This document shows positions 2,963-49,672 of a DNA stretch of 64,000 nucleotides, piece by piece (the stretch's first letter is position 1; every line of letters begins with the position of its first letter). The stretch is from Patescibacteria group bacterium. GTDB taxonomy: Bacteria; Patescibacteriota; Microgenomatia; UBA8517. The position numbers and the translations under genes were made by a program. Location of the stretch: positions 45,975 to 109,974 of the forward strand of contig JBGSJG010000004.1 of NCBI GenBank assembly GCA_041742135.1. The letters run 5' to 3'. Under the pieces are notes generated by a model. It ran no database searches and was not told the origin of the DNA. It saw nothing but the letters and a program-made list of their open reading frames with translations.

Positions 2963-3805
2963 CTATTCGTCGTGCGAGAATTTGTTTAGCAATTCTTTGA
3001 GCATGTTTTCACTGTAATTCTCTCTTGTTATCTGAAATAACATTTTAAATGTTCCACCTCCAAATTGCTCGTCTGTTTGTGTCTCTAGGTTTTTCCAGTC
3101 ACCAGTTAATCTAGCTTCAATAATCAAGTCCATCCATGAAGGAATTTTGCACTCTATTAGTGAATGTAAACGGACAAAGTTGTCTGCAACCAAAGACATG
3201 CGAGTGCCTAAATCTGTAAAAATATATGAGACATAAGTTTTCGGTGACGGCAAAGACTTTTCTTCCAGTTCTTTTCTCAGGGCTGCCATTTTTTGTGTTT
3301 TTAAAATATAGTCATCTTTGAATAGTAATTTCGCTCGGTGTGTGACGTAGAATTCTTCTTCTTTACTTACAAACCCTTCTTCAAAGAAGTAGCCCTGATA
3401 GCTTCGGATTTCGTTGTTTTTGTTTTTCACCGGAATCGGAACAATCGACTTTAGGCAATAAAGATGATCTAGTTCATGGAAAAGCAATGAAACAATGTCT
3501 AGGTTTGACATTCCCGGTTCTACAAAGATGACCACTACTGCATTTAAAGTAAGAGCTAACGAATTTGAAAAATCACTGTCTTGCCTTCCGCCAGCGTTGA
3601 CATATGCAGCGCTAACGGTGGCATTGTGTTTGCTGGGTATTAAATAGATGCGAGGCTCTGATGATTTAAAATTGTATTTCTCAGCCCGCTTGGAAAAATA
3701 ATTAATTAAATAAGATCGCTCGCTTACTAAACTTGCCCCAACCTTTTTCTGTAGTTTTTTTAAAATAGATTCCATTAAATTTTTCCTATAATTTGTTTTT
3801 ACCAC
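2963..3805 (-). CDS. hypothetical protein with HExxH motif (putative zinc metallohydrolase)
   Basis: LLFHELDHLYC motif in mid-protein. Start overlaps the end of ung by 7 nt, suggesting translational coupling. Confidence 0.35.
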   Translation of the reverse strand: MVKTNYRKNLMESILKKLQKKVGASLVSERSYLINYFSKRAEKYNFKSSEPRIYLIPSKHNATVSAAYVNAGGRQDSDFSNSLALTLNAVVVIFVEPGMSNLDIVSLLFHELDHLYCLKSIVPIPVKNKNNEIRSYQGYFFEEGFVSKEEEFYVTHRAKLLFKDDYILKTQKMAALRKELEEKSLPSPKTYVSYIFTDLGTRMSLVADNFVRLHSLIECKIPSWMDLIIEARLTGDWKNLETQTDEQFGGGTFKMLFQITRENYSENMLKELLNKFSHDE

Positions 3806-4470
3806 TCAATAGGTTCTTTGTCGTGCAGAATTAGGTAAGCATTCGTTTTTGTAAAATGGCGGCAACCAAAAAAGCCTTTGTCTGCTGAAAAAGGGGAAGG
3901 GTGGGGAGCTACGAGGACTAAATGCTTTTCTCGGTCGATGAACTCTCCCTTTTTTTGTGCATATGCTCCCCACAAGAGAAACACTAAGTTTGTTTTGTTA
4001 TTGGCGAGATACTTTACAGCGGCGTCCGTGAACTCCTCCCAGCCTTTTGCTTGGTGGCTTCCCGGACTACCACCGCGAACTGTCAAGGTTGCATTTAAAA
4101 GTAGCACTCCTTGTGTTGCCCAGCGAGTCAAGTTTCCATCGTTTGGCGGCCTTTTGCCTGTGTCGCCTTCAATTTCTTTGTAGATATTGTGAAGAGATGG
4201 GGGAACTGGTACTCCTTCGGGAACAGAAAAAGAAAGCCCGTGTGCTTGGCCTGCCCCGTGGTAGGGATCCTGGCCTAAAATAACCACTTTTGTATTTTCA
4301 ATGGGCGATGCATCAAAAGCTGTGAAAATTTTTTGAGGCGGTGGGTATACCGTGGCAGTGGCATACTCAGATTTTACGAACTTTGCAAGGCTGGCAAAGT
4401 AAGGCTTCTCAAATTCATCTGAAAGTACTTTTTTCCAGGATGACTCAAGTTTTACATCCATCAGCCACAA
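3799..4470 (-). CDS. ung: uracil-DNA glycosylase, family 1
   Basis: VVILGQDPYHGAGQAHGLSFSV (GQDPYH water-activating loop). C-terminal HPSP motif. Confidence 0.9.
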   Translation of the reverse strand: MWLMDVKLESSWKKVLSDEFEKPYFASLAKFVKSEYATATVYPPPQKIFTAFDASPIENTKVVILGQDPYHGAGQAHGLSFSVPEGVPVPPSLHNIYKEIEGDTGKRPPNDGNLTRWATQGVLLLNATLTVRGGSPGSHQAKGWEEFTDAAVKYLANNKTNLVFLLWGAYAQKKGEFIDREKHLVLVAPHPSPFSADKGFFGCRHFTKTNAYLILHDKEPIEW

Positions 4471-4514
4471 GTTTACACCAAATTAGTATATATTTAACTA
4501 AGGGGGTGATTTAG

Positions 4515-4691
4515 ATGAAGAAAAAAGATATGAGACAAGTGTCTCAAGTTTTAATAGCTGGAGCCGTTATCGCCGTAGTATTGGCCGCTATTGGGTATAC
4601 CGGGGTTGATATTTGGCTGGCTTCAACTCAATGGCTTTTGGTCGCGGCTGTTTTGGCCTTGTTTGGAGTTTATACCAAAATAAACTCATAG
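4515..4691 (+). CDS. small membrane protein (58 aa, two TM helices)
   Basis: AGGGGGTGA ribosome-binding site 6 nt upstream of the ATG. Not in the ORF track because it is under 60 aa. Hydrophobic composition. Confidence 0.45.
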   Translation: MKKKDMRQVSQVLIAGAVIAVVLAAIGYTGVDIWLASTQWLLVAAVLALFGVYTKINS

Positions 4692-4728
4692 TTTTGACAC
4701 CTTTATGCTTTTTTGTTAGGCTTGTGTC

Positions 4729-5190
4729 ATGAAAGCCGCCGTATTTTTGGTGGTAGTTTTGCTTCTGGGTCTTGTCGGCTTTTTATTTTTATCAAAGTCT
4801 CGTGACAACACTCCTAAAATTACCGATGAAGCAGCCACTCAAACAGTAGAAGTCGAGAATAAAATTGAGGAAATATTTGGGAGAAATATTCCTGACGATG
4901 TAGAAAAGCTGTCCCTTACAGATTTGACCAACGAAAGCTTGTTGGCTATTGCGACAAGAAAAGAAGAATCGGGCAGTGTCGAATTCTCGGTTTTAGCTGA
5001 TTTGCCAGAAAACCAAGAATCATATGAGGTCTGGGCTGGCGCGAGTAGCCAAACTGCTCAGAAAATTGGGAGTTTGATATCGGCTAAAGCCGGGTACATT
5101 TTTGAAGAAAACTCTCTTGGAGCACTTTCTGATTTTGAGTATGTTGCAATTATGCGTTCTGGCCAGAAAATGCTTGAAGGGTCCTTTTAA
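4729..5190 (+). CDS. membrane-anchored hypothetical protein
   Basis: N-terminal TM helix (AAVFLVVVLLLGLVGFLFL) followed by an acidic soluble domain. Confidence 0.45.
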   Translation: MKAAVFLVVVLLLGLVGFLFLSKSRDNTPKITDEAATQTVEVENKIEEIFGRNIPDDVEKLSLTDLTNESLLAIATRKEESGSVEFSVLADLPENQESYEVWAGASSQTAQKIGSLISAKAGYIFEENSLGALSDFEYVAIMRSGQKMLEGSF

Positions 5191-5200
5191 TACTTCAATT

Positions 5201-5209
5201 TGGTACAAT
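5201..5209 (+). promoter_or_regulatory. extended -10 element TGgTACAAT
   Basis: TGnTAnAAT match 7 nt upstream of the ATG at 5216. Implies a leaderless or very short leader transcript. Confidence 0.3.
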
Positions 5210-5215
5210 GAACTA

Positions 5216-5923
5216 ATGAAAAGGTTGACCGCAATACTGCTCGTGTCTTTATTTTTCATGGTGTCTCTACGCTCGGCGCAGGCTGCAATGCTAACTTTTA
5301 CTAAAAATGGCGAGGTTTATTGGAATGTTTTGGGTCTTGAAGATAGTACCTTGGAAGTGACGAAGGTTGTGGAGAAATTTGTAAGTGGGATGCCTTCAAC
5401 TGTAATTTTGTCAAACGATCAGGGGACAGTAAGGTTAAGTTATGGTGATCGTGGTGAGCGCGAGGTCGACATTTCGGGCTATAACGAGGACATTGTTGAG
5501 ATCGAAGGCAAGGAGTCAGCAAAAAAACTTTTTATTCGAGCGACCGACAACGGTTTTTCGATTCGAGAAAAAGCTATTACCGCAAATACCAGCTTTCCTA
5601 TAAAAATTAATTCGCCCCAAAATAAAATTGCAGTAACCACGCCTTCAGGTGAGAGGTTTCTGTCAGTTTCACCATTTGATGCAGTGAACCAGATTGTGCG
5701 CACCAATATCATAAGCGCGTTTGCGGGGGAGGCAACAATCGATTTAGTCGAAAAAAGTGAGGGGGAAATTGCCTACGTCATAATTGGCAAGAAGGATATT
5801 CAACTTTTTAATATTTTTATGATTGAAGTGCCAATAACAGCTGAAGTTTCAGCACTCAGTGGCAACGTCATTGATGTAGTTAGCCCACTTTGGTATTCTG
5901 TTGTAGATTTTCTGTTGGTTTAA
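5216..5923 (+). CDS. secreted hypothetical protein
   Basis: Start moved to the internal ATG that gives a signal peptide (MKRLTAILLVSLFFMVSLRSAQA). The track start at 5102 overlaps the previous gene. Confidence 0.45.
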   Translation: MKRLTAILLVSLFFMVSLRSAQAAMLTFTKNGEVYWNVLGLEDSTLEVTKVVEKFVSGMPSTVILSNDQGTVRLSYGDRGEREVDISGYNEDIVEIEGKESAKKLFIRATDNGFSIREKAITANTSFPIKINSPQNKIAVTTPSGERFLSVSPFDAVNQIVRTNIISAFAGEATIDLVEKSEGEIAYVIIGKKDIQLFNIFMIEVPITAEVSALSGNVIDVVSPLWYSVVDFLLV

Positions 5924-9170: not shown

Positions 9171-9814
9171 AAGACATCGAAATAATTCCTGGCATTTTGA
9201 CCAACAATTCCGAAGAGCTTCGTTCTCTTTTGGCGCGTGCAACGGGCGTGGCAAAACGAGTTCATATAGATATTATCGATGGCGTTTTTGCTGGCAATAA
9301 AACTATCGATCCGTCGGTACTAAACAATATCGACAATTCACTTTTAATTGATTTTCATTTGATGGTAAAAAGCCCCATAAGCTGGCTTGAAAAGTGTTTG
9401 CAAGCTGGAGGAGCTCGTGCGATTGGTCAAGTAGAAAGGATGAATGACCCGGAAGAGTACGTTAAAAAGTGCCAAGGATTGGGATTGTCTCCCGGGTTGG
9501 CATTGGATCTAACTACCCCGGTGGATTATATTGAGCCTCGGATTTTGATGGATGTGGACGTTGTACTTCTAATGAGTGTTCCGGCTGGCTACGGAGGGCA
9601 GAAATTTGAAGACTCGGTTTTAACAAAAATTAAGGAATTAATAGAAATTCGCGGGCGAGACTCTCAGCCTTTTAAAATAATTGATGATGGGGGGATAGTT
9701 TTATCAAACGTTGACGATGTCGCTCGAGCTGGTGTTGACGAGGTAGTAATTGGCCAGAGAATTTTTGAAGGGGATTTGAAAGACAATATCGCAAAATTTA
9801 AAAGTGCCGCATGA
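9167..9814 (+). CDS. rpe: ribulose-phosphate 3-epimerase
   Basis: HIDIIDGVF...DFHLMV motifs. Start overlaps the gap stop. Confidence 0.85.
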   Translation: MKDIEIIPGILTNNSEELRSLLARATGVAKRVHIDIIDGVFAGNKTIDPSVLNNIDNSLLIDFHLMVKSPISWLEKCLQAGGARAIGQVERMNDPEEYVKKCQGLGLSPGLALDLTTPVDYIEPRILMDVDVVLLMSVPAGYGGQKFEDSVLTKIKELIEIRGRDSQPFKIIDDGGIVLSNVDDVARAGVDEVVIGQRIFEGDLKDNIAKFKSAA

Positions 9815-10683: not shown

Positions 10684-11107
10684 CTTTCAGTCGAATAATT
10701 CAAGAAAGATAGTTAAAGTGGCGTTGGCTGTGCTTTTGGCAATCTTGTTTACAATTTCAACTCTACTTTATGCAATCACATTTGCATTCGTTTATGACTT
10801 GCGCAGTGTTTTAATTAATGCAAATTCAACACTTTCAATATTTCTGACGATAATCCCGTTCATGTTGGTCGGGTTTTGGTATTTTGTATTTAGAAAAATT
10901 GTTAATACGCCGAAAAAGTTTGTATTATTTTTGCTGATTCTAGCAGTAGTATTAACTTTTAACAAAGTGGTACTTAATCATAAAAGTGAATGCAATCGCA
11001 TAACAGATACTGGTGCTGAGTTCACGATGGCGCATTATTTGTTTACATTCAGGTGCGGTGATCCGCCACCGGCATCACAGTTTTATCAACCAGATTATTT
11101 ATATTGA
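10655..11107 (+). CDS. hypothetical membrane protein
   Basis: Three to four hydrophobic helices. Start is uncertain, with an alternative ATG at 10676. Confidence 0.35.
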   Translation: MAKFTASMSDFQSNNSRKIVKVALAVLLAILFTISTLLYAITFAFVYDLRSVLINANSTLSIFLTIIPFMLVGFWYFVFRKIVNTPKKFVLFLLILAVVLTFNKVVLNHKSECNRITDTGAEFTMAHYLFTFRCGDPPPASQFYQPDYLY

Positions 11108-11148: not shown

Positions 11149-11667
11149 ATGAATGATCCACACAATTACGACAAATTAAACGTAGTCAAAATTATTGTTG
11201 AATCCCCAAATGGGAAGATACTTTTGATTCAAGAGCCTGTAATGAACGAATGGATGCCTGGGCGATGGGGGCTTCCAGGTGGCAGAACCGTCGAAAAGCA
11301 GTCTTTAAAAGATGCTGCACAGGCTAAGATGCAGGAGGATTTGGGCCGACAACTCCCGATAATTGGTCTTTTTAAGATTGAGGAGCTATTAATTGATAGC
11401 CGCACAGTTATGATGTTTATAGTTGTTGCTAAAGCTGACGATGAGTTTGTTCCGGGAGGTAAAGCGTACGCCCATAAATGGGCAGATTGGGCAGAAATCT
11501 CTCAGATGCACATAGAGGAGTTTACCGAGTATTACTCACAGAAGCTTTTCGATCAATTTTTTAATCAACCACGAAATCTTTGTTCAATGGACATAATCGA
11601 AAGTCATACATATTATCTTTTCTCAGGAGAATCTGAATACAAGCGCTGGTGGGGACGCGAAAGTTAA
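11149..11667 (+). CDS. NUDIX hydrolase
   Basis: Nudix box region GRWGLPGGRTVEKQSLKDAAQAKMQEDLG. Confidence 0.6.
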   Translation: MNDPHNYDKLNVVKIIVESPNGKILLIQEPVMNEWMPGRWGLPGGRTVEKQSLKDAAQAKMQEDLGRQLPIIGLFKIEELLIDSRTVMMFIVVAKADDEFVPGGKAYAHKWADWAEISQMHIEEFTEYYSQKLFDQFFNQPRNLCSMDIIESHTYYLFSGESEYKRWWGRES

Positions 11668-16084: not shown

Positions 16085-17070
16085 ACCAGCTGGTAATTTT
16101 TGGTTCAGCCAGAATTGATGCTTTTTTAACCCTCCCAGATGAAAAGGCGGATACATTTTGTGAACTGGACACCAAAAAATGTGTTCTTCAGCTTTCCTAT
16201 GCCAGTAAAATCCCCATGAAATCGGTTAATTTTCTACTTGGCGGCAATGGTGCCAACGTGGCCGTGGGAACAAAGCGCATGGGAGTTGCCAGCGTCTTGG
16301 CTGCAGAGGTTGGCTTTGGAGTGATGGGAGATTATGCCAAACGGGAGCTGGTCGCGCAAGATGTGGACGTTTCTCACGTTACTCAGACCCCAGACGTTCC
16401 TGCGGGTTTTGGTGCGGTGATTAACTACCAAGGAGAGCGTACAATTTTGTCTTATTATCCACCGGCTGAGCCGCCTTTTCCGGATAATGTTTGCGAAGCC
16501 GAGTGGGCTTATTTAACTTCAGTTGGTGAATCTTTTGAAAAATATTATGAAAAAATTCTTAAATGGGTCAATAACTGCAATCCAAAAATTGCTTTTAACC
16601 CCGGAGGCAGGCAGATTTCTTTAGGCAAAGAGTGGATCGCTCCTTATTTGGCAAAGACAGAGCTTTTATTGGCAAATCGCGAGGAATGCCAAGATATTGT
16701 TGATTTTCATGATAGTTTTGGAAAAGAGAAAGAGCTGATGGGAAAACTCATTGAGACCGGAGTTAAAAAAGTGGTGATTACAGATGGTAGAAATGGCTCT
16801 TTTGGCTATGACGGAGAAAAATATTATCGATTGGGCATCATCCCAGTAGAGGCGATTGAACGAACCGGTGCGGGGGACGCCACAAGTACTGGAATACTCG
16901 CGGCTTTAATAAAAGGCAAGAATCTTGGTGAAGCGATGATGTGGGGAATGCTTAATTCCACTTCTGTAATTGGGTACGTGGGGCCTCAACCGGGACTTTT
17001 GCACGAGCGAGACATTTCAGTCTGGCTTGAGCGGGCAAAAAGTGCAGGAATTGGTGTGGAGGAGTTTTAA
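16081..17070 (+). CDS. PfkB/ribokinase-family sugar(-phosphate) kinase
   Basis: ATGA overlap with the fba stop. C-terminal TGAGDATSTG motif (DTxGAGD anion hole). Confidence 0.75.
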   Translation: MNQLVIFGSARIDAFLTLPDEKADTFCELDTKKCVLQLSYASKIPMKSVNFLLGGNGANVAVGTKRMGVASVLAAEVGFGVMGDYAKRELVAQDVDVSHVTQTPDVPAGFGAVINYQGERTILSYYPPAEPPFPDNVCEAEWAYLTSVGESFEKYYEKILKWVNNCNPKIAFNPGGRQISLGKEWIAPYLAKTELLLANREECQDIVDFHDSFGKEKELMGKLIETGVKKVVITDGRNGSFGYDGEKYYRLGIIPVEAIERTGAGDATSTGILAALIKGKNLGEAMMWGMLNSTSVIGYVGPQPGLLHERDISVWLERAKSAGIGVEEF

Positions 17071-36887: not shown

Positions 36888-36998
36888 GCGCAAAAATGGG
36901 CCTGTCGTTCAATGGTAGGACACCATTCTTATAAAGTGGACACGAAGGTTCGATTCCTTCCAGGCCCACATTTTTGCGATATATCGTGATGCGTTATA
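36883..36998 (+). mobile_element. 106-nt insertion in the anticodon loop of tRNA#2, carrying an intact tRNA gene
   Basis: Flanked by 10-nt inverted repeats CGCAAAAATG (36889-36898) and CATTTTTGCG (36969-36978), and by a duplicated TTATA (36883-87 and 36994-98). Confidence 0.4.
36898..36968 (+). tRNA. tRNA, anticodon UAU (Ile-type, AUA-reading) by manual cloverleaf; no encoded CCA
   Basis: Acceptor GGGCCTG/CAGGCCC. D-stem GTTC/GGAC. Anticodon stem CCATT/AGTGG, loop CTTATAA. T-arm GAAGG-TTCGATT-CCTTC. 71 nt. Confidence 0.6.
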
Positions 36999-38710: not shown

Positions 38711-38844
38711 CGTCGTCGGTTGCGGGGCCGGGAGTCGCGCCCGGCCTAGGAGATTATGAGCCTCCTGTGCAACTCTACACTACCCCGCATATCACCCTCA
38801 ATTGTTTTCAAGGGTGTCCTATTATACCTCGAAGTGTAAAGATG

Positions 38845-45224: not shown

Positions 45225-46328
45225 ATGAAAATTGCACTTGTGCACGATTATCTACGCGATCTAGGGGGAGCTGAGCGGGTACTTTTGGCCTTAAGTGATA
45301 TTTATCCCGAGGCGCCGATTTATACGGCTTTTTACAGCAAAAATTCTCCTGCTGGCGAAGTGTTTGCCAAGAAAACAATTCACGAAAGCGCGTTTGCGCC
45401 ACTACTTAAAATTTGGCGGCTTTATAGCCCTTTGCGCTTTTTACTTCCTTGGATTTGGGGGAGTATTGATTTGTCTGATTATGATTTGGTGATAACTTCG
45501 TGTTCCAACTACATTGCCCGTGGCTTTAAGGTAGGGAAAAACACAAAAGTTGTAGCTTATTGCCACACTCCACCAAGATTTTTATATGGAATGAAAACTG
45601 GGTATGATTGGAAAAAGAACTTTTTTACCAGAATGTACGGCTTGGTTGTCGCACATTTTTTAAGAGTTTTTGATTGGGAGAGCGCACAAAAAATTGATCA
45701 CTGGATTGTAAATTCCGAAAATGTTCGCGCTCGTGTTAAAAAATATTACAGAAAAGATGCTGTAGTTATATACCCCCCGATAGAAACCGAGAAGCTCTCG
45801 CGTGCCACCCAGGGAGTTACGAAAGAAAATTATTTTTTGATAGTTGCCCGGCTTGTTGGTTCCAAGGGTTTGGAAGAGGCAATTGTTGCGGCGAATGAGC
45901 TTGATGTTCCTCTTAAAGTTGTCGGGGACGCCGATGGCTTTACGGCTGTGGCAAATAGGCTTAGAGGAATTGGTAAAAGTAATGTAGAGTTTGTTGGAAG
46001 AGTGAATGACGAGAAGCTTTGGAAATTATATGCCAAAGCTCGCGGTTTTATAGCTTTAGCGCGGGATGAGGATTTTGGCATGACTGTTGTAGAAGCTCAA
46101 GCGGCAGGTACGCCGGTTATCGCCTTTAATGGCGGCGGGTTTACAGAGAGCATAATCGATGGTAAAACAGGTATTTTTGTCAACGACACTGATGTCGCAA
46201 CTCTCAAAAAGGCTTTTAAGCGCTTTAGTCAAATAAAGTGGGACAAAAAAGTAATAATGAAAAATGCTGATAGATTCGGAGTAGCGAGATTTGAGAGAGA
46301 AATTAAGCAGCTTGTGGAAGCTGTTTAA
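45225..46328 (+). CDS. glycosyltransferase family 4
   Basis: ALVHDYL..GGAERV N-terminus. EDFGMTVVEAQAAGTPVIA C-terminal GT-B motif. Confidence 0.75.
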   Translation: MKIALVHDYLRDLGGAERVLLALSDIYPEAPIYTAFYSKNSPAGEVFAKKTIHESAFAPLLKIWRLYSPLRFLLPWIWGSIDLSDYDLVITSCSNYIARGFKVGKNTKVVAYCHTPPRFLYGMKTGYDWKKNFFTRMYGLVVAHFLRVFDWESAQKIDHWIVNSENVRARVKKYYRKDAVVIYPPIETEKLSRATQGVTKENYFLIVARLVGSKGLEEAIVAANELDVPLKVVGDADGFTAVANRLRGIGKSNVEFVGRVNDEKLWKLYAKARGFIALARDEDFGMTVVEAQAAGTPVIAFNGGGFTESIIDGKTGIFVNDTDVATLKKAFKRFSQIKWDKKVIMKNADRFGVARFEREIKQLVEAV

Positions 46329-47162
46329 TTTTTTCGACATGTGCATTAAGTTCTGCCAGGTCGGTAATTCCATCCATTACATTTATCAGAGTCCGATCGA
46401 CTCCATATTCGACCACATTCCCTTCGGCGTCAACAAAAGACTGGAGTGGGGTAAAAAGCTCAAGCAGCCCTTTTCTCTCTAAGGTCTTATGCTGGGCGTT
46501 TTCCACATCTGCAATTTTCTCAGGATCACTCATTCGTGTTTCGATTAAGATAGCATGAGTCTCGCGGCGAAATTGTTCGAATGTAATTTCCCCCGCCAAA
46601 TTGTACTTTTTGCAAAATCATAAGATTTTGCCTCGGCGCTCCGCGCCTCGTCATGATATTTTTTGCCTATAATCCAAGCATTTTTAAATTCGCACGCCAG
46701 CGTGCGGTCGGTGATACGAAAGTTCGAACCAATCTTTTTAAAAAAATCTCTAATTATTTCAGGATTTTTTTGTTGAGCAAAATTTTGGGCTCGGTTGGCC
46801 TCTTTTAGAAATTCAAAGGCAAGTTCGAACCGATTATTGCTCTTTCGCCCAAAAGCAGTTATTTTTTCCTCCAAATCTTTTTTGGCGAGAATGAGTTTAT
46901 ATTTTTTAGAGGTGTATTCTGTTTGTGACAAACTGCCTTCTAGATGCAAATCGAGTAGTCGGTCAAGTTTTGTTTCGGTATCGAGTAACTCACTTCTCGC
47001 TTTTTGGGCGAAGGAGCTTTCGGCTTGGTTAATTTCAATTTTTTCTTTTTCAAATTCTGCAATTGAGGCATTAACCCAAGCCGAAGACAAAGAAACTTTT
47101 TTGATTTCTTCTTTTATTTGAAAAGTGATGGAAGAACGGTTGTTGTAACAAGAGGAAAGCAA
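46303..47162 (-). pseudogene. remnant of a large serine recombinase gene (C-terminal coiled-coil/DUF4368-like region only, frameshifted, catalytic domain missing)
   Basis: LDRLLDLHLEGSLSQTEYTSKKYKLILAKKDLEEKI coiled-coil pattern. Two overlapping ORFs (46545-47162 and 46303-46599) in different frames. Confidence 0.4.
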
Positions 47163-47423
47163 GGATCAGATATCTATTACACAGAAAAAGGTATTTTAAA
47201 AACAAATCATATTAATGCAATTTTGACAGATGAGATTGTTGATCACACAGGTGCTGGTGATTGTTATAAATCAGGTTTTTTTGCAACATATTTTAAAAAT
47301 AAAGGTGTTGTAAGAGCATGTGAAGTTGGTGCATTGGCAGGTAAATTTTGTGTATCTGAAAAAGGGGGACTTTTGTCTAATAATTCTATATTACAGATTA
47401 AAAAGGAAATACAGAATGTTTAA
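47118..47423 (+). pseudogene. C-terminal fragment of a PfkB/ribokinase-family kinase (5'-truncated), AT-rich
   Basis: VVTRGKQGS...DHTGAGDCYKSGF equals only the last 100 aa or so of a ribokinase fold. About 30% GC versus about 43% in flanks. Confidence 0.45.
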
Positions 47424-48072
47424 AACAATCGACGAAATAGGTAAAAGATATCGTTTTGCAACAACACTGCCAATAGTTGGTGACGAAGAAGGTTTGGGGC
47501 TTACAAGTTATCAATCTGCTTCTGAACATACGGCCAAGAGAATTTTAGAAAAACTAGGAACAGTAAATGTATTAGAACTTTGTTCAGGGGTTGGTGGTAC
47601 TACTGTGTTTTTAGCAAAAAAATTAGAACACATATATTCAATAGATTTAAAACCATTGAGAATCAAGGCAGCAAAGATTAACGCACAATCATTTGGTGTT
47701 GCAAATAAAATTACATTTATTTGCGGTGATGTGTTAGATGAAAAGTTGTTAATTAAATTTAAAAATAATAATATTCAGGCTGTTGTTACTGATGTAGAGT
47801 GGAGGGACGATTTGTCTAACTCATTATTAGAAACTACACCAGATATTACAAAAACTATTCCACCTACTCCTATACTTTTTGAAAAAATAAATAGACTTAT
47901 TTGCCCAAATATTATTATGCATATGGCGGCAAATACCAACAAAGAACAACTTCAGCAACTTTGTGATTGTGAAATTGAAGAAATGATATTTGGGGGGGTG
48001 GTTAAGTTCATAAATGTTTACTTTGGAAAATTAATAAATAGTATTGGAACTACCCAATTTATTATGAGATAA
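47416..48072 (+). CDS. class I SAM-dependent methyltransferase (TGS1/RNA-cap-guanine-N2-like pattern), AT-rich
   Basis: VLELCSGVGGTTVFLA (motif I) and ITFICGDVLD. Confidence 0.5.
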   Translation: MFKTIDEIGKRYRFATTLPIVGDEEGLGLTSYQSASEHTAKRILEKLGTVNVLELCSGVGGTTVFLAKKLEHIYSIDLKPLRIKAAKINAQSFGVANKITFICGDVLDEKLLIKFKNNNIQAVVTDVEWRDDLSNSLLETTPDITKTIPPTPILFEKINRLICPNIIMHMAANTNKEQLQQLCDCEIEEMIFGGVVKFINVYFGKLINSIGTTQFIMR

Positions 48073-48127
48073 TTAATGAAATAAAGTAGTAAAATACTTT
48101 CAGTTATATATTTTTAAAATAAAAAAC

Positions 48128-48580
48128 ATGGCAGATCAAATAGACATTTCCAAACTTCACTCAGTAATTGTTAATGCAGTTGTCGAAAAAGATGGAAAAA
48201 TATTAGTTTCTCAAAGAAGCTTCGAAGAGGCTCATGAACCAGGTAAATGGACTATTCCAGGGGGAAAGGTGGATAAGACCGAAGGAGATGTTTTTAATAT
48301 AGTTGAAAAAACTTGTGCTCGAGAAGTAGAGGAAGAAACAGGCGTAATAATAAAGGAAGACGCTCATTTAATTACAAACAATACTTTTATTAGATCAAAC
48401 GGACAACATGTTATCGCTTTGATTTGTTTGTGTCATTGGTCATCAGGTGAAGCGCAGGCACTTGAAGATACGATTGGCGTCAAGTGGATTTCTGAAAATG
48501 AAATCGATTCAATTGAATTTGCTCCAAATGTCAAAGGTTATATTAAAAAGGGATTTGAAATACTTAATAATTTAAAATAA
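48128..48580 (+). CDS. NUDIX hydrolase (second copy)
   Basis: Nudix box GKWTIPGGKVDKTEGDVFNIVEKTCAREVEEETGV. Confidence 0.7.
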   Translation: MADQIDISKLHSVIVNAVVEKDGKILVSQRSFEEAHEPGKWTIPGGKVDKTEGDVFNIVEKTCAREVEEETGVIIKEDAHLITNNTFIRSNGQHVIALICLCHWSSGEAQALEDTIGVKWISENEIDSIEFAPNVKGYIKKGFEILNNLK

Positions 48581-48581
48581 T

Positions 48582-48755
48582 ATGACCGAGAAAAAACCAG
48601 TTATAGCCCAAGATACTATCGATGAAATTAATCAAGGTAAGATAAAATTACCCACAAATGAGGCATATGATGCCGCTGATGAATTTGGTGAGTCAAGAAT
48701 GAGACCACCAGCACCAGTGGTTAAAACTGAGAAATCAGAAAAGAAACCAGCATAA
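48582..48755 (+). CDS. small hypothetical protein (57 aa)
   Basis: ATG 2 nt after the NUDIX stop. K/E-rich. Below the ORF-track size cutoff. Confidence 0.25.
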   Translation: MTEKKPVIAQDTIDEINQGKIKLPTNEAYDAADEFGESRMRPPAPVVKTEKSEKKPA

Positions 48756-48797
48756 TCGATTGACACCAAATTCATCCCCAAAACAATCCTCATCCCT

Positions 48798-48852
48798 GCT
48801 CGAGTATGACGGAAGGAGGGGGTTGGGGGGAGGAATTCCGTCATAATCGAGC
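48798..48852. repeat. 17-bp inverted repeat (1 mismatch) enclosing a G-rich 21-nt loop (GGAGGGGGTTGGGGGGAGGAA)
   Basis: GCTCGAGTATGACGGAA / TTCCGTCATAATCGAGC. Confidence 0.7.
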
Positions 48853-48898
48853 AATTACAAATAACGGTCGTCCCCGCCGTTATGAAAGAATTGAAATC

Positions 48899-48987
48899 AC
48901 CCAGCAAAAAATTATTCTTTTCCTTTTTGATTTAAATTTTCGGCGCGCATTCATAAAAATAAATAAAGAAAATTTTTTTGCTGGGTG
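48899..48987. repeat. 16-bp inverted repeat CACCCAGCAAAAAATT / AATTTTTTTGCTGGGTG flanking a 56-nt AT-rich segment (MITE-like)
   Basis: Seen directly. A third small hairpin ATAACGG-TCGTCCCCG-CCGTTAT lies at 48861-48883. Confidence 0.65.
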
Positions 48988-49034
48988 GCAATCCATGAGC
49001 AAGTGGAGTGCAACGGCGGGGATGACCTCCTTAT

Positions 49035-49592
49035 TCAGGGTTTTGTCCAAAAAATGTTCGAACTTCGTCCAAAAAACACTCTGTCGTATTGGGTATGGAG
49101 AAAAGCGTGATAACCATTTAGGTGTTTTCCAGTGGCAATTGTTTGTAAGGCTATGGCCTTTACATGTTCAAGAGTTTGTAGCCTTTGAGTCTCACCGCCA
49201 TATATAAAAGCATGTTCTGGGTGAGAGGGGTCAAATGAATGGGCAACTTCGTGGTCAGAAGCACTATCAATTGCCTGTGCAGGTAAAGCAACGAGCCGAC
49301 TATAAAATGTTAACTTTCCTTTATCTGGGCCGCTTGGTGTGTGAGTTCCCAACAAATCAGGATGGTCGGCTGAGTTTTCGGCCTCCTCAAGAGCGGGAAT
49401 CATATCTACAGGCAGTCCTCTCCTTGCGATTCTTTGGCGGACATCAGCCATATCAAAAATGTAATACTCGTCGTCTGGTCGTGAAATTGATTCCAAGTGG
49501 CGCAGCCTGGCTTCGTATCCTTCAATTCTTGTTCTTTCAGGTTCTATGTAATCTCGGCGTGGGTCAAAACTAACTCTTCTTTTCTCTGCCAT
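49035..49592 (-). CDS. YgjP/DUF45-like metal-dependent hydrolase (HExxH)
   Basis: HEVAHSFDPSHPEHAF resembles the YgjP HELAHLxHxNHSxxFW signature. Confidence 0.5.
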   Translation of the reverse strand: MAEKRRVSFDPRRDYIEPERTRIEGYEARLRHLESISRPDDEYYIFDMADVRQRIARRGLPVDMIPALEEAENSADHPDLLGTHTPSGPDKGKLTFYSRLVALPAQAIDSASDHEVAHSFDPSHPEHAFIYGGETQRLQTLEHVKAIALQTIATGKHLNGYHAFLHTQYDRVFFGRSSNIFWTKP

Positions 49593-49672
49593 GGAGGAAA
49601 TTATAACCTGTTGTCGGGCTTAATGCAAAAATTTCTTTGTGATAAGGTATACTAATTTATTCGCAACTACTT

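Follow-up and report, generated by a model that had tools for sequence, protein, structure and literature searches.

A stretch of 64,000 nucleotides (nt) from contig JBGSJG010000004.1 of a Patescibacteria group bacterium, referred to here as the window, contains an insertion of ~2.49 kb (46594-49079) that breaks precisely into one host gene. We read this insertion, with a probability of about 0.8, as a decayed and immobilised array of mobile-element segments inside the gene of a protein with an HExxH motif. Followed along the minus strand from 49592 to 46303, the locus consists of the 5' part of the host gene, a 45-nt motif, a hairpin module, the cargo (an open reading frame (ORF) of 57 amino acids (aa), a NUDIX hydrolase, a methyltransferase and a pfkB fragment, pfkB', in that order), a deletion, the 3' third of the gene of a large serine recombinase (LSR) with its terminal repeat, a CG dinucleotide, and the 3' part of the host gene. 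This layout follows the canonical order of the arrays found in related loci, with the host gene standing in for both flank and tRNA. A sequence-only reading of the region had proposed a foreign, partly degraded mobile element bounded by 46303 and 49035. Its foreign and degraded nature is borne out by the composition, the absence from relatives and the element debris; the frameshift invoked for the recombinase and the proposed boundaries are not, as the insertion actually starts at 46594 and ends at 49079.

An insertion within a single host gene

Relatives of the locus were obtained by scanning species-representative genomes with the product of fpg, which yielded a Woesebacteria metagenome-assembled genome (75% identity) and three further relatives. 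The gene order FtsH, 5'-3' exonuclease, GT4, fpg, recF is shared by L009, L010 and L011, in which the GT4 stop codon lies 4-25 nt from the fpg ATG; the corresponding gap in the window is 3,344 nt. Since GT4 and fpg abut in these relatives, the whole of 46329-49672 is lineage-specific, which is more than the AT-rich part. The suspected break in synteny is thus present, the block being missing between GT4 and fpg in all three.

The insertion lies between the two parts of the host gene, which had been called as separate minus-strand ORFs. One, of 98 aa (46303-46599), comprises the 3' part of the gene (46303-46593) and has as its first codons TTG-GCG, supplied by the end of the element. The other, of 185 aa (49035-49592), comprises the 5' part (49080-49592), with ~171 host-encoded codons followed by 14 foreign residues and a stop from the 45-nt motif. 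An exhaustive profile-free search with the 98-aa ORF brought up a family of proteins of 250-380 aa in which only the C-terminal ~90 residues match this ORF. The N-terminal ~150 residues of those proteins match the 185-aa ORF, for which a word-indexed homologue search had returned just itself. Residues 1-92 of the 98-aa ORF align with 149-240 of family member P0162 (45% identity, E = 2e-23), and residues 51-167 of the 185-aa ORF with 33-148 of the same protein (E = 7e-19). P0164 likewise matches the 98-aa ORF from its first residue (P0164 165-253) and residues 22-165 of the 185-aa ORF (P0164 16-152, E = 9e-16).

When the two parts are rejoined, the protein aligns without gaps across the junction with eight family members and shares their GLP, HExxH, QT, YH and ETHAI...R..P..V..AQ signatures; besides HExxH, the motifs GLP, LNGYH and ETHAI are conserved in the family. 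None of the family proteins (P0162-P0195) matched a Pfam family. On these alignments, the 98-aa and 185-aa ORFs are two parts of one gene coding for an HExxH protein of ~267 aa. Both are host-like in composition, the 98-aa ORF having a GC content of 0.44 and a GC content at third codon positions (GC3) of 0.38. Accordingly, 46303-46599, once taken for a frameshifted piece of the recombinase, belongs to an unrelated host gene, and the supposed separate flanking "YgjP-like gene" at 49035-49592 is the 5' part of the same gene running into the element. The best reconstruction of the uninterrupted gene reads ...CAA TAC GAC AGA GGG GAA ATT... at the point of insertion, where the length typical of the family is kept; the predicted uninterrupted sequence is CAATACGACAGAGGGGAAATTACATTCGAAC.

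The recombinase family, its cassette arrays and their ends

The 3' remnant of the recombinase occupies 46593-47131 on the minus strand and corresponds to the last 539 nt of a recombinase unit, including a terminal repeat of 134 nt. By tblastn it covers residues ~321-511 of the 513-aa recombinase of L019, with 72% aa identity, and at the nucleotide level the stretch is 80-83% identical to dozens of contigs (L033, L052, L037 etc.). This homology always starts at 47130/47131 and ends exactly at the end of the terminal repeat and the core. The 205-aa minus-strand ORF within it has 129 homologues with ~70-75% aa identity, the longer of which carry PF07508/PF13408. A profile search of the remnant found none of the Pfam recombinase domains (PF00239, PF07508, PF13408): the catalytic, recombinase and zinc-ribbon domains are missing, and what is left is a C-terminal coiled coil and tail homologous to those of LSR family members. 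The full-length gene of L019 (9506-11047, 513 aa) has PF00239 (residues 16-161), PF07508 and PF13408. Matches to PHROGs were generic, including a weak one of the remnant to the phrog_95 integrase. The copy in the window is thus the dead remnant of a true LSR. A C-terminal recombinase remnant had been predicted from the letters alone and does exist, on the minus strand; it has lost its 5' end by deletion and is not frameshifted.

The deletion junction can be placed by comparing the window with the recombinase loci and with L004, a locus in which the operon supplying the cargo is conserved. Recombinase sequence passes into pfkB sequence within 47121-47131 over a few common bases, an imperfect microhomology (AAAAG.GA.GG). 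A single illegitimate deletion would account for the loss of the 5' ends of both the recombinase and pfkB. At the other end of the remnant, the right terminal inverted repeat (46593-46726, minus strand, 134 nt) lies within the 3' end of the recombinase frame. Its counterpart in L019 (10887-11020) matches the reverse complement of L019 9270-9403 with 99-100% identity, and the same holds for ~15 loci.

A metagenome scan returned 80 loci (L015-L094), in most of which the frame continues for ~165 codons upstream of the matched part to give ORFs of ~510-540 aa. The recombinase unit is ~1.8 kb long (examples of the unit and its surroundings are L019 9229-11044 and L030 944-11020) and is 87-95% identical over dozens of contigs with unrelated flanks, many contigs breaking at its ends. 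Inverted repeats of 134 nt form its boundaries; they show 96-100% identity, several loci having perfect ones, and the right repeat lies inside the 3' end of the gene. The right end of the unit abuts the 3' end of a convergent tRNA gene in 58 of the 66 loci that could be assessed: 55 of these are tRNA-Ser (all four isoacceptors were found), 2 are tRNA-Asp and 1 is tRNA-Trp. Directly to the left of the unit, many loci have a recombinase-less cassette of 2.5-8 kb with inverted repeats of 190-400 nt that are 97-100% identical and often perfect. Stacking of recombinase-less cassettes by an LSR element is seen in L016, L019, L030, L038, L046, L047, L050, L067, L087, L088 and L093, and several repeat-bounded segments lie in a row in L019 and L047. 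These arrays are comparable to those of staphylococcal cassette chromosome (SCC) elements; the window itself holds one decayed cassette and the recombinase remnant, at a non-canonical site.

The gene content of the cassettes varies from locus to locus. Thirteen cassettes with inverted-repeat bounds were mapped, and in most of them the cargo points to the outer end, as it does in the window. Proteins of seven were scanned, and their cargo included NgoPII with a C5 methylase, EcoRV, BsobI, type I and type III systems, a D12 methylase with an AAA_15 ATPase, and RadC.

Some loci have unusual arrangements. In L020, the whole unit is present at both ends of a 9.2-kb contig (1-1966 and 7207-9172), a perfect inverted duplication of 1,966 nt around ~5.2 kb; this may represent a composite-transposon-like structure or else have arisen in assembly. 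The unit of L066 lies between two complete, identical, inverted tRNA-Ser(GGA) genes (9186-9275 and 11015-11104), and that of L036 has a tRNA-Ser on its left and the 45-nt motif on its right; simple integration at one tRNA does not account for either. Additional recombinases were also seen: L019 has a diverged second recombinase-like stretch (3081-3847, 66% nt identity to L019 9680-10449) inside another repeat-bounded segment, and the gene of a paralogous serine recombinase of 501 aa (4029-5534) lies within a cassette of L047.

The opposite end of the insertion is formed by a structured module of ~270 nt (48770-49034, plus strand) and the 45-nt motif. Three hairpins make up the module (48798-48814/48836-48852; 48869-48881/49012-49024, enclosing 48899-48920/48965-48986; 49025-49032/49037-49046). 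Three strong hairpins had been predicted, and three strong inverted repeats are indeed found within 48797-49027 of the intergenic region 48756-49034; the minimum free energy of the module has a z-score of -5.5, and none of 100 shuffled sequences folds equally well. The module can be aligned along its length with those of nine other loci. Of the 57 pairs in their consensus fold, 26 show compensatory double changes, and 95.2% of the paired cells can pair, against 46-53% with partners shifted by 1-3 columns; covariation as high as that observed did not occur in any of 500 shuffles. On the strand reading toward the outer end there are 33 G-T cells against 9 A-C cells, a weak hint of a role at the RNA level. 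Equivalent regions elsewhere are also GC-rich and over-structured (z < -3 in 47 of 67), and the hairpin regions gave only sub-threshold microRNA-model noise against Rfam. A free miniature inverted-repeat transposable element (MITE) was considered and rejected, as the hairpin arms have no second copy within the 64-kb window and the module elsewhere forms the two ends of gene-carrying cassettes of 2.5-8 kb. The hairpins described earlier as MITE-like therefore represent a conserved, covarying end module of a recombinase-associated class of cassettes.

The 45-nt terminal motif (TCAGGGTTTTGTCCAAAAAATGTTCGAACTTCGTCCAAAAAACAC; 49035-49079, plus strand) is 83-95% identical to the 42-45 nt just outside the left repeat of the unit in ~40 loci, a position that in relatives is the outer end of the cassette repeats. 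Its 32-nt core matches L018, L027, L028, L029 and L053 with 0 mismatches; the core occurs once in the window and in 48 of 80 recombinase loci, and no other retrieved locus has it.

Between the terminus of the unit and the host lies a CG at 46594-46595, the presumed crossover dinucleotide. Every junction in related loci has the core C-CG-CCAA, a sequence that doubles as the CCA end of tRNA-Ser, and the order of junctions in arrays is flank-CG-cassette, cassette-CG-unit, unit-CG-tRNA. On the minus strand of the window, the unit-terminal TTGG-CG is followed directly by the host sequence GGGGAAATTAC-ATTCGAAC, and ATTCGAAC lies 11 nt from the CG, the spacing of the T-loop in tRNA ends. A motif of the GTTCGAA type, which in tRNA ends is the T-loop, has a spacing to the CG of 11 nt in 65 tRNA ends and of 16 nt in 61 cassette ends (GTTCGAAC in the 45-nt motif); the 8-bp motif occupies positions 12-19 in the tRNA ends and 17-24 in the cassette ends. 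For the LI integrase, the zinc-ribbon motif is located at positions 16-24 of attP and 11-19 of attB half-sites, a shift of 5 bp (PMC3783163). The same 5-bp shift is found here as a spacing in the sequence. Because the spacings of 11 and 16 nt match it, the cassette ends, including the 45-nt motif, may be taken for arms of the attP type, and the tRNA T-arm for one of the attB type.

The stretch 46560-46598 was also considered as the leftover 3' end of a tRNA gene. This was rejected because it encodes residues conserved in the host protein family, and it is better described as a tRNA-like pseudo-target.

Probable cargo from a nucleotide-salvage operon

Sliding windows of 400 nt give a GC content of 0.285-0.347 over 47000-48600 and of 0.38-0.50 in the flanks, the block averaging ~0.31 against 0.43 in its surroundings. 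When 1.5-kb windows were taken over the whole 64 kb, the lowest value was that of 47251-48750 (0.323), and nearly all others were between 0.39 and 0.47. GC3 is 0.137 in pfkB', 0.205 in the methyltransferase gene, 0.225 in the NUDIX gene and 0.241 in the 57-aa ORF, which is 3-5 standard deviations (SD) under the host mean of 0.389±0.048 (55 long ORFs of the window); all other ORFs of the window have a GC3 of at least 0.30. Composition is thus not uniform across the window, and the AT-rich island that had been noticed at the outset is confirmed by sliding GC, GC3 and the 64-kb minimum alike.

The pfkB-family pseudogene fragment (47118-47423, plus strand) contains the last ~98 of ~287 codons. It covers only positions 221-298 of the 302 of the PF00294 profile and is 75.5% identical to residues 190-287 of the 287-aa PfkB of L004. 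Homology to L004 starts at 47118-47127, and no pfkB sequence is found upstream in any frame, which substantiates the 5' truncation that had been suggested. The N-terminal substrate-binding part of the ~290-aa fold is therefore absent; the 101-aa pfkB' retains the C-terminal DTxGAGD ATP/anion-hole motif (...IVDHTGAGDCYKSGF...).

The ATG of the next gene overlaps the pfkB stop codon (ATGTTTAA). This gene (47416-48072, plus strand) codes for an intact class I methyltransferase of 218 aa, and its proposed likeness to TGS1 is supported by both Pfam and structure-database matches. PF09445 (Methyltransf_15) is matched with 61.2 bits (cut-off 22), the S-adenosylmethionine motif VLELCSGVGG is present, and the best, and only good, solved relative is human TGS1 (3gdh, 3egi; E = 5e-16). 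There are 39 homologues with 48-80% identity, and all of those with a source name are Patescibacterial. The ratio of nonsynonymous to synonymous substitution rates (dN/dS) against L004 is 0.04. The context of the gene, an operon with GMP synthase, kinase and NUDIX genes, suggests a nucleotide or RNA as the substrate of the methyltransferase.

A NUDIX gene had likewise been recognised downstream, and the 150-aa product of 48128-48580 (plus strand), an intact MutT-like hydrolase, matches PF00293 with 59 bits (cut-off 21, E = 6e-16). It is 94% identical to the NUDIX protein of L004 (dN/dS 0.02), and its relatives in the PDB are MutT/NUDIX proteins. Set against the Nudix box consensus GX5EX7REUXEEXGU, the core REVEEETGV is present, but the first E and RE are separated by 12 residues instead of 7 (GKVDKTE-GDVFNIVEKTCA-RE). 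The block ends with the 57-aa ORF (48582-48755, plus strand), which is 69% identical to its counterpart in L004.

These four genes are collinear with the last four of the L004 operon: 47127-48745 corresponds to L004 9712-11327 with 77.5% nt identity, starting inside pfkB, at residue 190, and ending at the 57-aa ORF. Only this last part of the operon, 1.63 kb cut inside pfkB, is present, and the genes upstream of it are found nowhere in the window. In every readable context, the operon consists of a phosphoribosyltransferase, GuaA (GMP synthase), Tmk, a PfkB of ~286 aa, the methyltransferase and usually NUDIX; some contexts add an upstream nucleoside-deoxyribosyltransferase-like gene or a downstream 57-aa ORF. 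It is conserved in L004 (5656-11337), L005-L008, L095 and L097 (795-5779), the last of which has a radical-SAM gene in place of NUDIX. Rather than being phage or plasmid genes, as had been suspected, pfkB', the methyltransferase and NUDIX are thus the tail of a conserved Patescibacterial nucleotide-salvage operon.

The GC content of the L004 operon (0.37-0.39) matches that of its genome (0.366), and low GC is therefore not a property of these genes. A carrier of the operon with low GC does exist (L097, ~0.29), and the operon fragment derives, to judge from its composition, from a Patescibacterium of lower GC content. The dN/dS values against L004 are 0.02-0.18 with the pfkB fragment included, indicating that the block evolved as functional genes until recently. 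The window also has a second, distant pfkB-family gene (16237-16953, 22% identity to L004 PfkB) and another NUDIX-like stretch (11149-11286), and the host may thus have versions of both functions that are its own.

Elsewhere in the window, a tRNA-Ile with the anticodon TAT (UAU) is found at 36898-36969, near tRNA-Met(CAT) genes at 38718 and 40622. A UAU anticodon is an uncommon bacterial means of reading AUA. The minus-strand tRNA-Met at 38718-38789, predicted by ARAGORN, stays under the gathering score of the Rfam tRNA model, which the window's other two tRNAs do reach.

Proposed history of the insertion and relation to known systems

In the history that we propose, the recombinase would act on circular elements and integrate them at the CG through site-specific recombination of the conservative kind, and successive integrations, at the tRNA-proximal site, of circles with palindromic joints would give rise to the observed order of the arrays. 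The predicted joint of a cassette circle, or of an empty palindrome, is CAAAAAACAC-CG-GTGTTTTTTG, and that of a recombinase-unit circle ...AAAATTGG-CG-CCAATTTT.... In this genome the element would have used a tRNA look-alike in the host gene, ...ACA[GA]GGGGAAATTAC-ATTCGAAC, with a central GA in the target against the CG of the element, and the mismatched crossover would have been resolved by replication. The unequal GA and CG junctions would then block excision. The 5' two thirds of the recombinase gene would have been lost later in an illegitimate deletion, together with the inner end of the cassette and the upstream part of its cargo.

Several observations weigh against this history. The central dinucleotides of the two outer junctions are not identical: CG is present at 46594-46595 and GA (minus strand) at 49080-49081, whereas canonical arrays have CG at all junctions. 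A small deletion is an alternative explanation for the host/motif junction, and mutation or the loss of 3 nt would look alike. The ends of the 134-nt repeats of the unit carry no GTTCGAA at either spacing. No excised circle or empty-site junction was seen in the retrieved loci or in viral contigs, and junctions of the types motif-CG-motif, repeat-CG-repeat and tRNA-CG-motif were likewise missing from the retrieved loci; mobility is consequently deduced only from the distribution of the elements. The nearest relatives lack the host gene itself in their GT4-fpg interval. As for the cargo, all seven scanned cassettes carry restriction-modification or related, defence-type genes, none of the 80 recombinase loci has salvage-operon genes as cargo or any co-occurrence of the recombinase with the halves of the host gene, and the operon of relatives is chromosomal and lacks the 45-nt motif, so that the block may have entered separately.

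The last of these observations favour a history of two events, in which the array decayed and the 1.63-kb operon fragment from a lower-GC Patescibacterium was later inserted illegitimately in place of earlier cargo, which was probably made up of restriction-modification genes. The microhomology at the left junction of the block, itself an illegitimate join, would suit such an insertion. The right edge of the block (48755), however, lies within ~15 nt of the start of the end-module homology, and the genes of the block have the orientation of cargo in most mapped cassettes, toward the outer end. Moreover, one deletion accounts for both truncated 5' ends, whereas separate entry requires at least two extra breakpoints. 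We therefore regard two events as rather unlikely and somewhat favour arrival of the operon fragment as cassette cargo.

A different kind of explanation is that the family represents an invertible-DNA (shufflon-like) system residing beside tRNA-Ser, in which the serine recombinase flips segments between the long inverted repeats; the copy in the window would be a dead one. Two to four neighbouring segments with perfect inverted repeats do form chains, with overlapping ends in L019 and L047, the self-complementary central CG would leave the sites without polarity, and the perfect identity of the repeats suggests ongoing exchange. Yet the unit is found in dozens of unrelated flanks, at four tRNA-Ser isoacceptors, at tRNA-Asp and tRNA-Trp and, here, in a protein-coding gene; cargo is wholly different between cassettes, and contigs break at the ends of the unit. 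These observations require movement between sites, with which inversion could coexist, and a purely invertible system is improbable.

The insertion might also be a chimeric join made at repeats during metagenome assembly. Both the unit and the motif are repeated sequences, and many contigs end at them; Logan contig L001 breaks off 2 nt short of the motif's outer end, with no independent contig across 49079/49080. Short Logan contigs from two separate runs (SRR28170473, SRR28170474) nevertheless cover three of the four junctions at 100% identity, the two sides are complementary halves of a gene that rejoin gap-free, which a chimera would not yield, and the methyltransferase and the 185-aa ORF are 100% identical on an NCBI contig of 453,693 bp. 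We consider a chimera very improbable. Another Logan contig, L003, stops inside the 134-nt repeat (46677), and the ends of L001 and L003 are consistent with repeats elsewhere in the samples. Native DNA whose low GC reflects gene-specific constraint, to which purifying selection and the wide distribution of the operon in the phylum might point, can be practically dismissed given the GC of the operon in L004, a GC3 far under the host mean, a block that starts in mid-gene between element debris, and the absence of the whole interval from relatives.

SCC elements, found in staphylococci and enterococci, are mobilised by Ccr large serine recombinases, with cassettes stacked at the 3' end of one housekeeping gene. 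The present family is similar in being LSR-driven and site-specific at the 3' end of a housekeeping gene, in its accreted cassettes, including recombinase-less ones, and in its restriction-modification cargo. It differs in using the 3' end of tRNA-Ser instead of rlmH, in having a single recombinase in a 1.8-kb unit of its own, in its Patescibacteria hosts, in its perfect terminal inverted repeats of 134-400 nt, and in the conserved structured end module of ~270 nt in each cassette. With phage serine integrases (A118/LI, Bxb1, phiC31) it shares the order Resolvase-Recombinase-zinc ribbon-coiled coil, the presumed crossover at a central dinucleotide, and a recognition motif 5 bp nearer the centre in the target-type half-site (PMC3783163). 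By contrast, there are no phage genes here, the element arms are long and perfectly palindromic, and element ends of several types are apparently handled by a single enzyme; a search for a directionality factor identified none. An origin from phage or plasmid was considered and rejected: annotated relatives from phages and plasmids share no more than 29% identity with the recombinase, the viral contigs contained a single distant match to it and no 45-nt motif, and the PHROGs matches were generic.

In tRNA-gene islands and tycheposons, cargo arrays lie beside a tRNA gene and the integrated element restores its 3' end (PMC4383910; 10.1101/2020.12.28.424599); these systems employ tyrosine recombinases almost exclusively, as did 910 of 937 elements in the tycheposon study (10.1101/2020.12.28.424599). 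The present arrays resemble tycheposons in their position at a tRNA gene but have a serine recombinase and replace only the last bases of the tRNA, its CCA end. Tn4451 and Tn5397 are small non-phage elements with a single large serine recombinase (TnpX and TndX) and a circular form. Unlike the present family, they carry resistance cargo in one element, insert at sites resembling their own joint, are not targeted to tRNA genes and are without separate recombinase-less cassettes or long perfect repeats. Finally, compared with the salvage operon of L004, the copy in the window is much lower in GC than its host and lies inside the remnant of a mobile element.

No description of a serine-recombinase/tRNA-Ser cassette system in Patescibacteria was found in the literature searches. 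A 2025 paper reports restriction-modification genomic islands in Patescibacteria and gives no mechanism for them. The copy in the window is dead debris and ordinary as such; the family that it reveals is apparently undescribed. We see an even chance that this is a still active family in two parts, an LSR unit and cassettes with interchangeable cargo, mostly restriction-modification systems, all integrating at the CCA end of tRNA-Ser through T-arm attB-type and 45-nt attP-type half-sites, and that its cassettes can ferry nucleotide-salvage genes between distant lineages and can land in tRNA-mimicking sites in protein genes.

Patescibacteria are ultra-small, have tiny genomes, rely on scavenged nucleotides and are nearly intractable genetically. 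In the present genome, a host gene would have been hit at a tRNA look-alike and the element locked in and eroded by one deletion, leaving two foreign salvage genes intact, one of them that of a cap-methyltransferase-like enzyme. The spacings of 11 and 16 nt would confirm, from a large natural sample, an attB/attP geometry that had been put forward on the basis of one crystal structure. The movement of defence and metabolic genes among Patescibacteria could be explained by a compact serine recombinase whose attachment sites, the tRNA-Ser T-arm and the 45-nt motif, are readable. The enzyme is also an obvious choice to consider as a tool for integrating DNA in this group.

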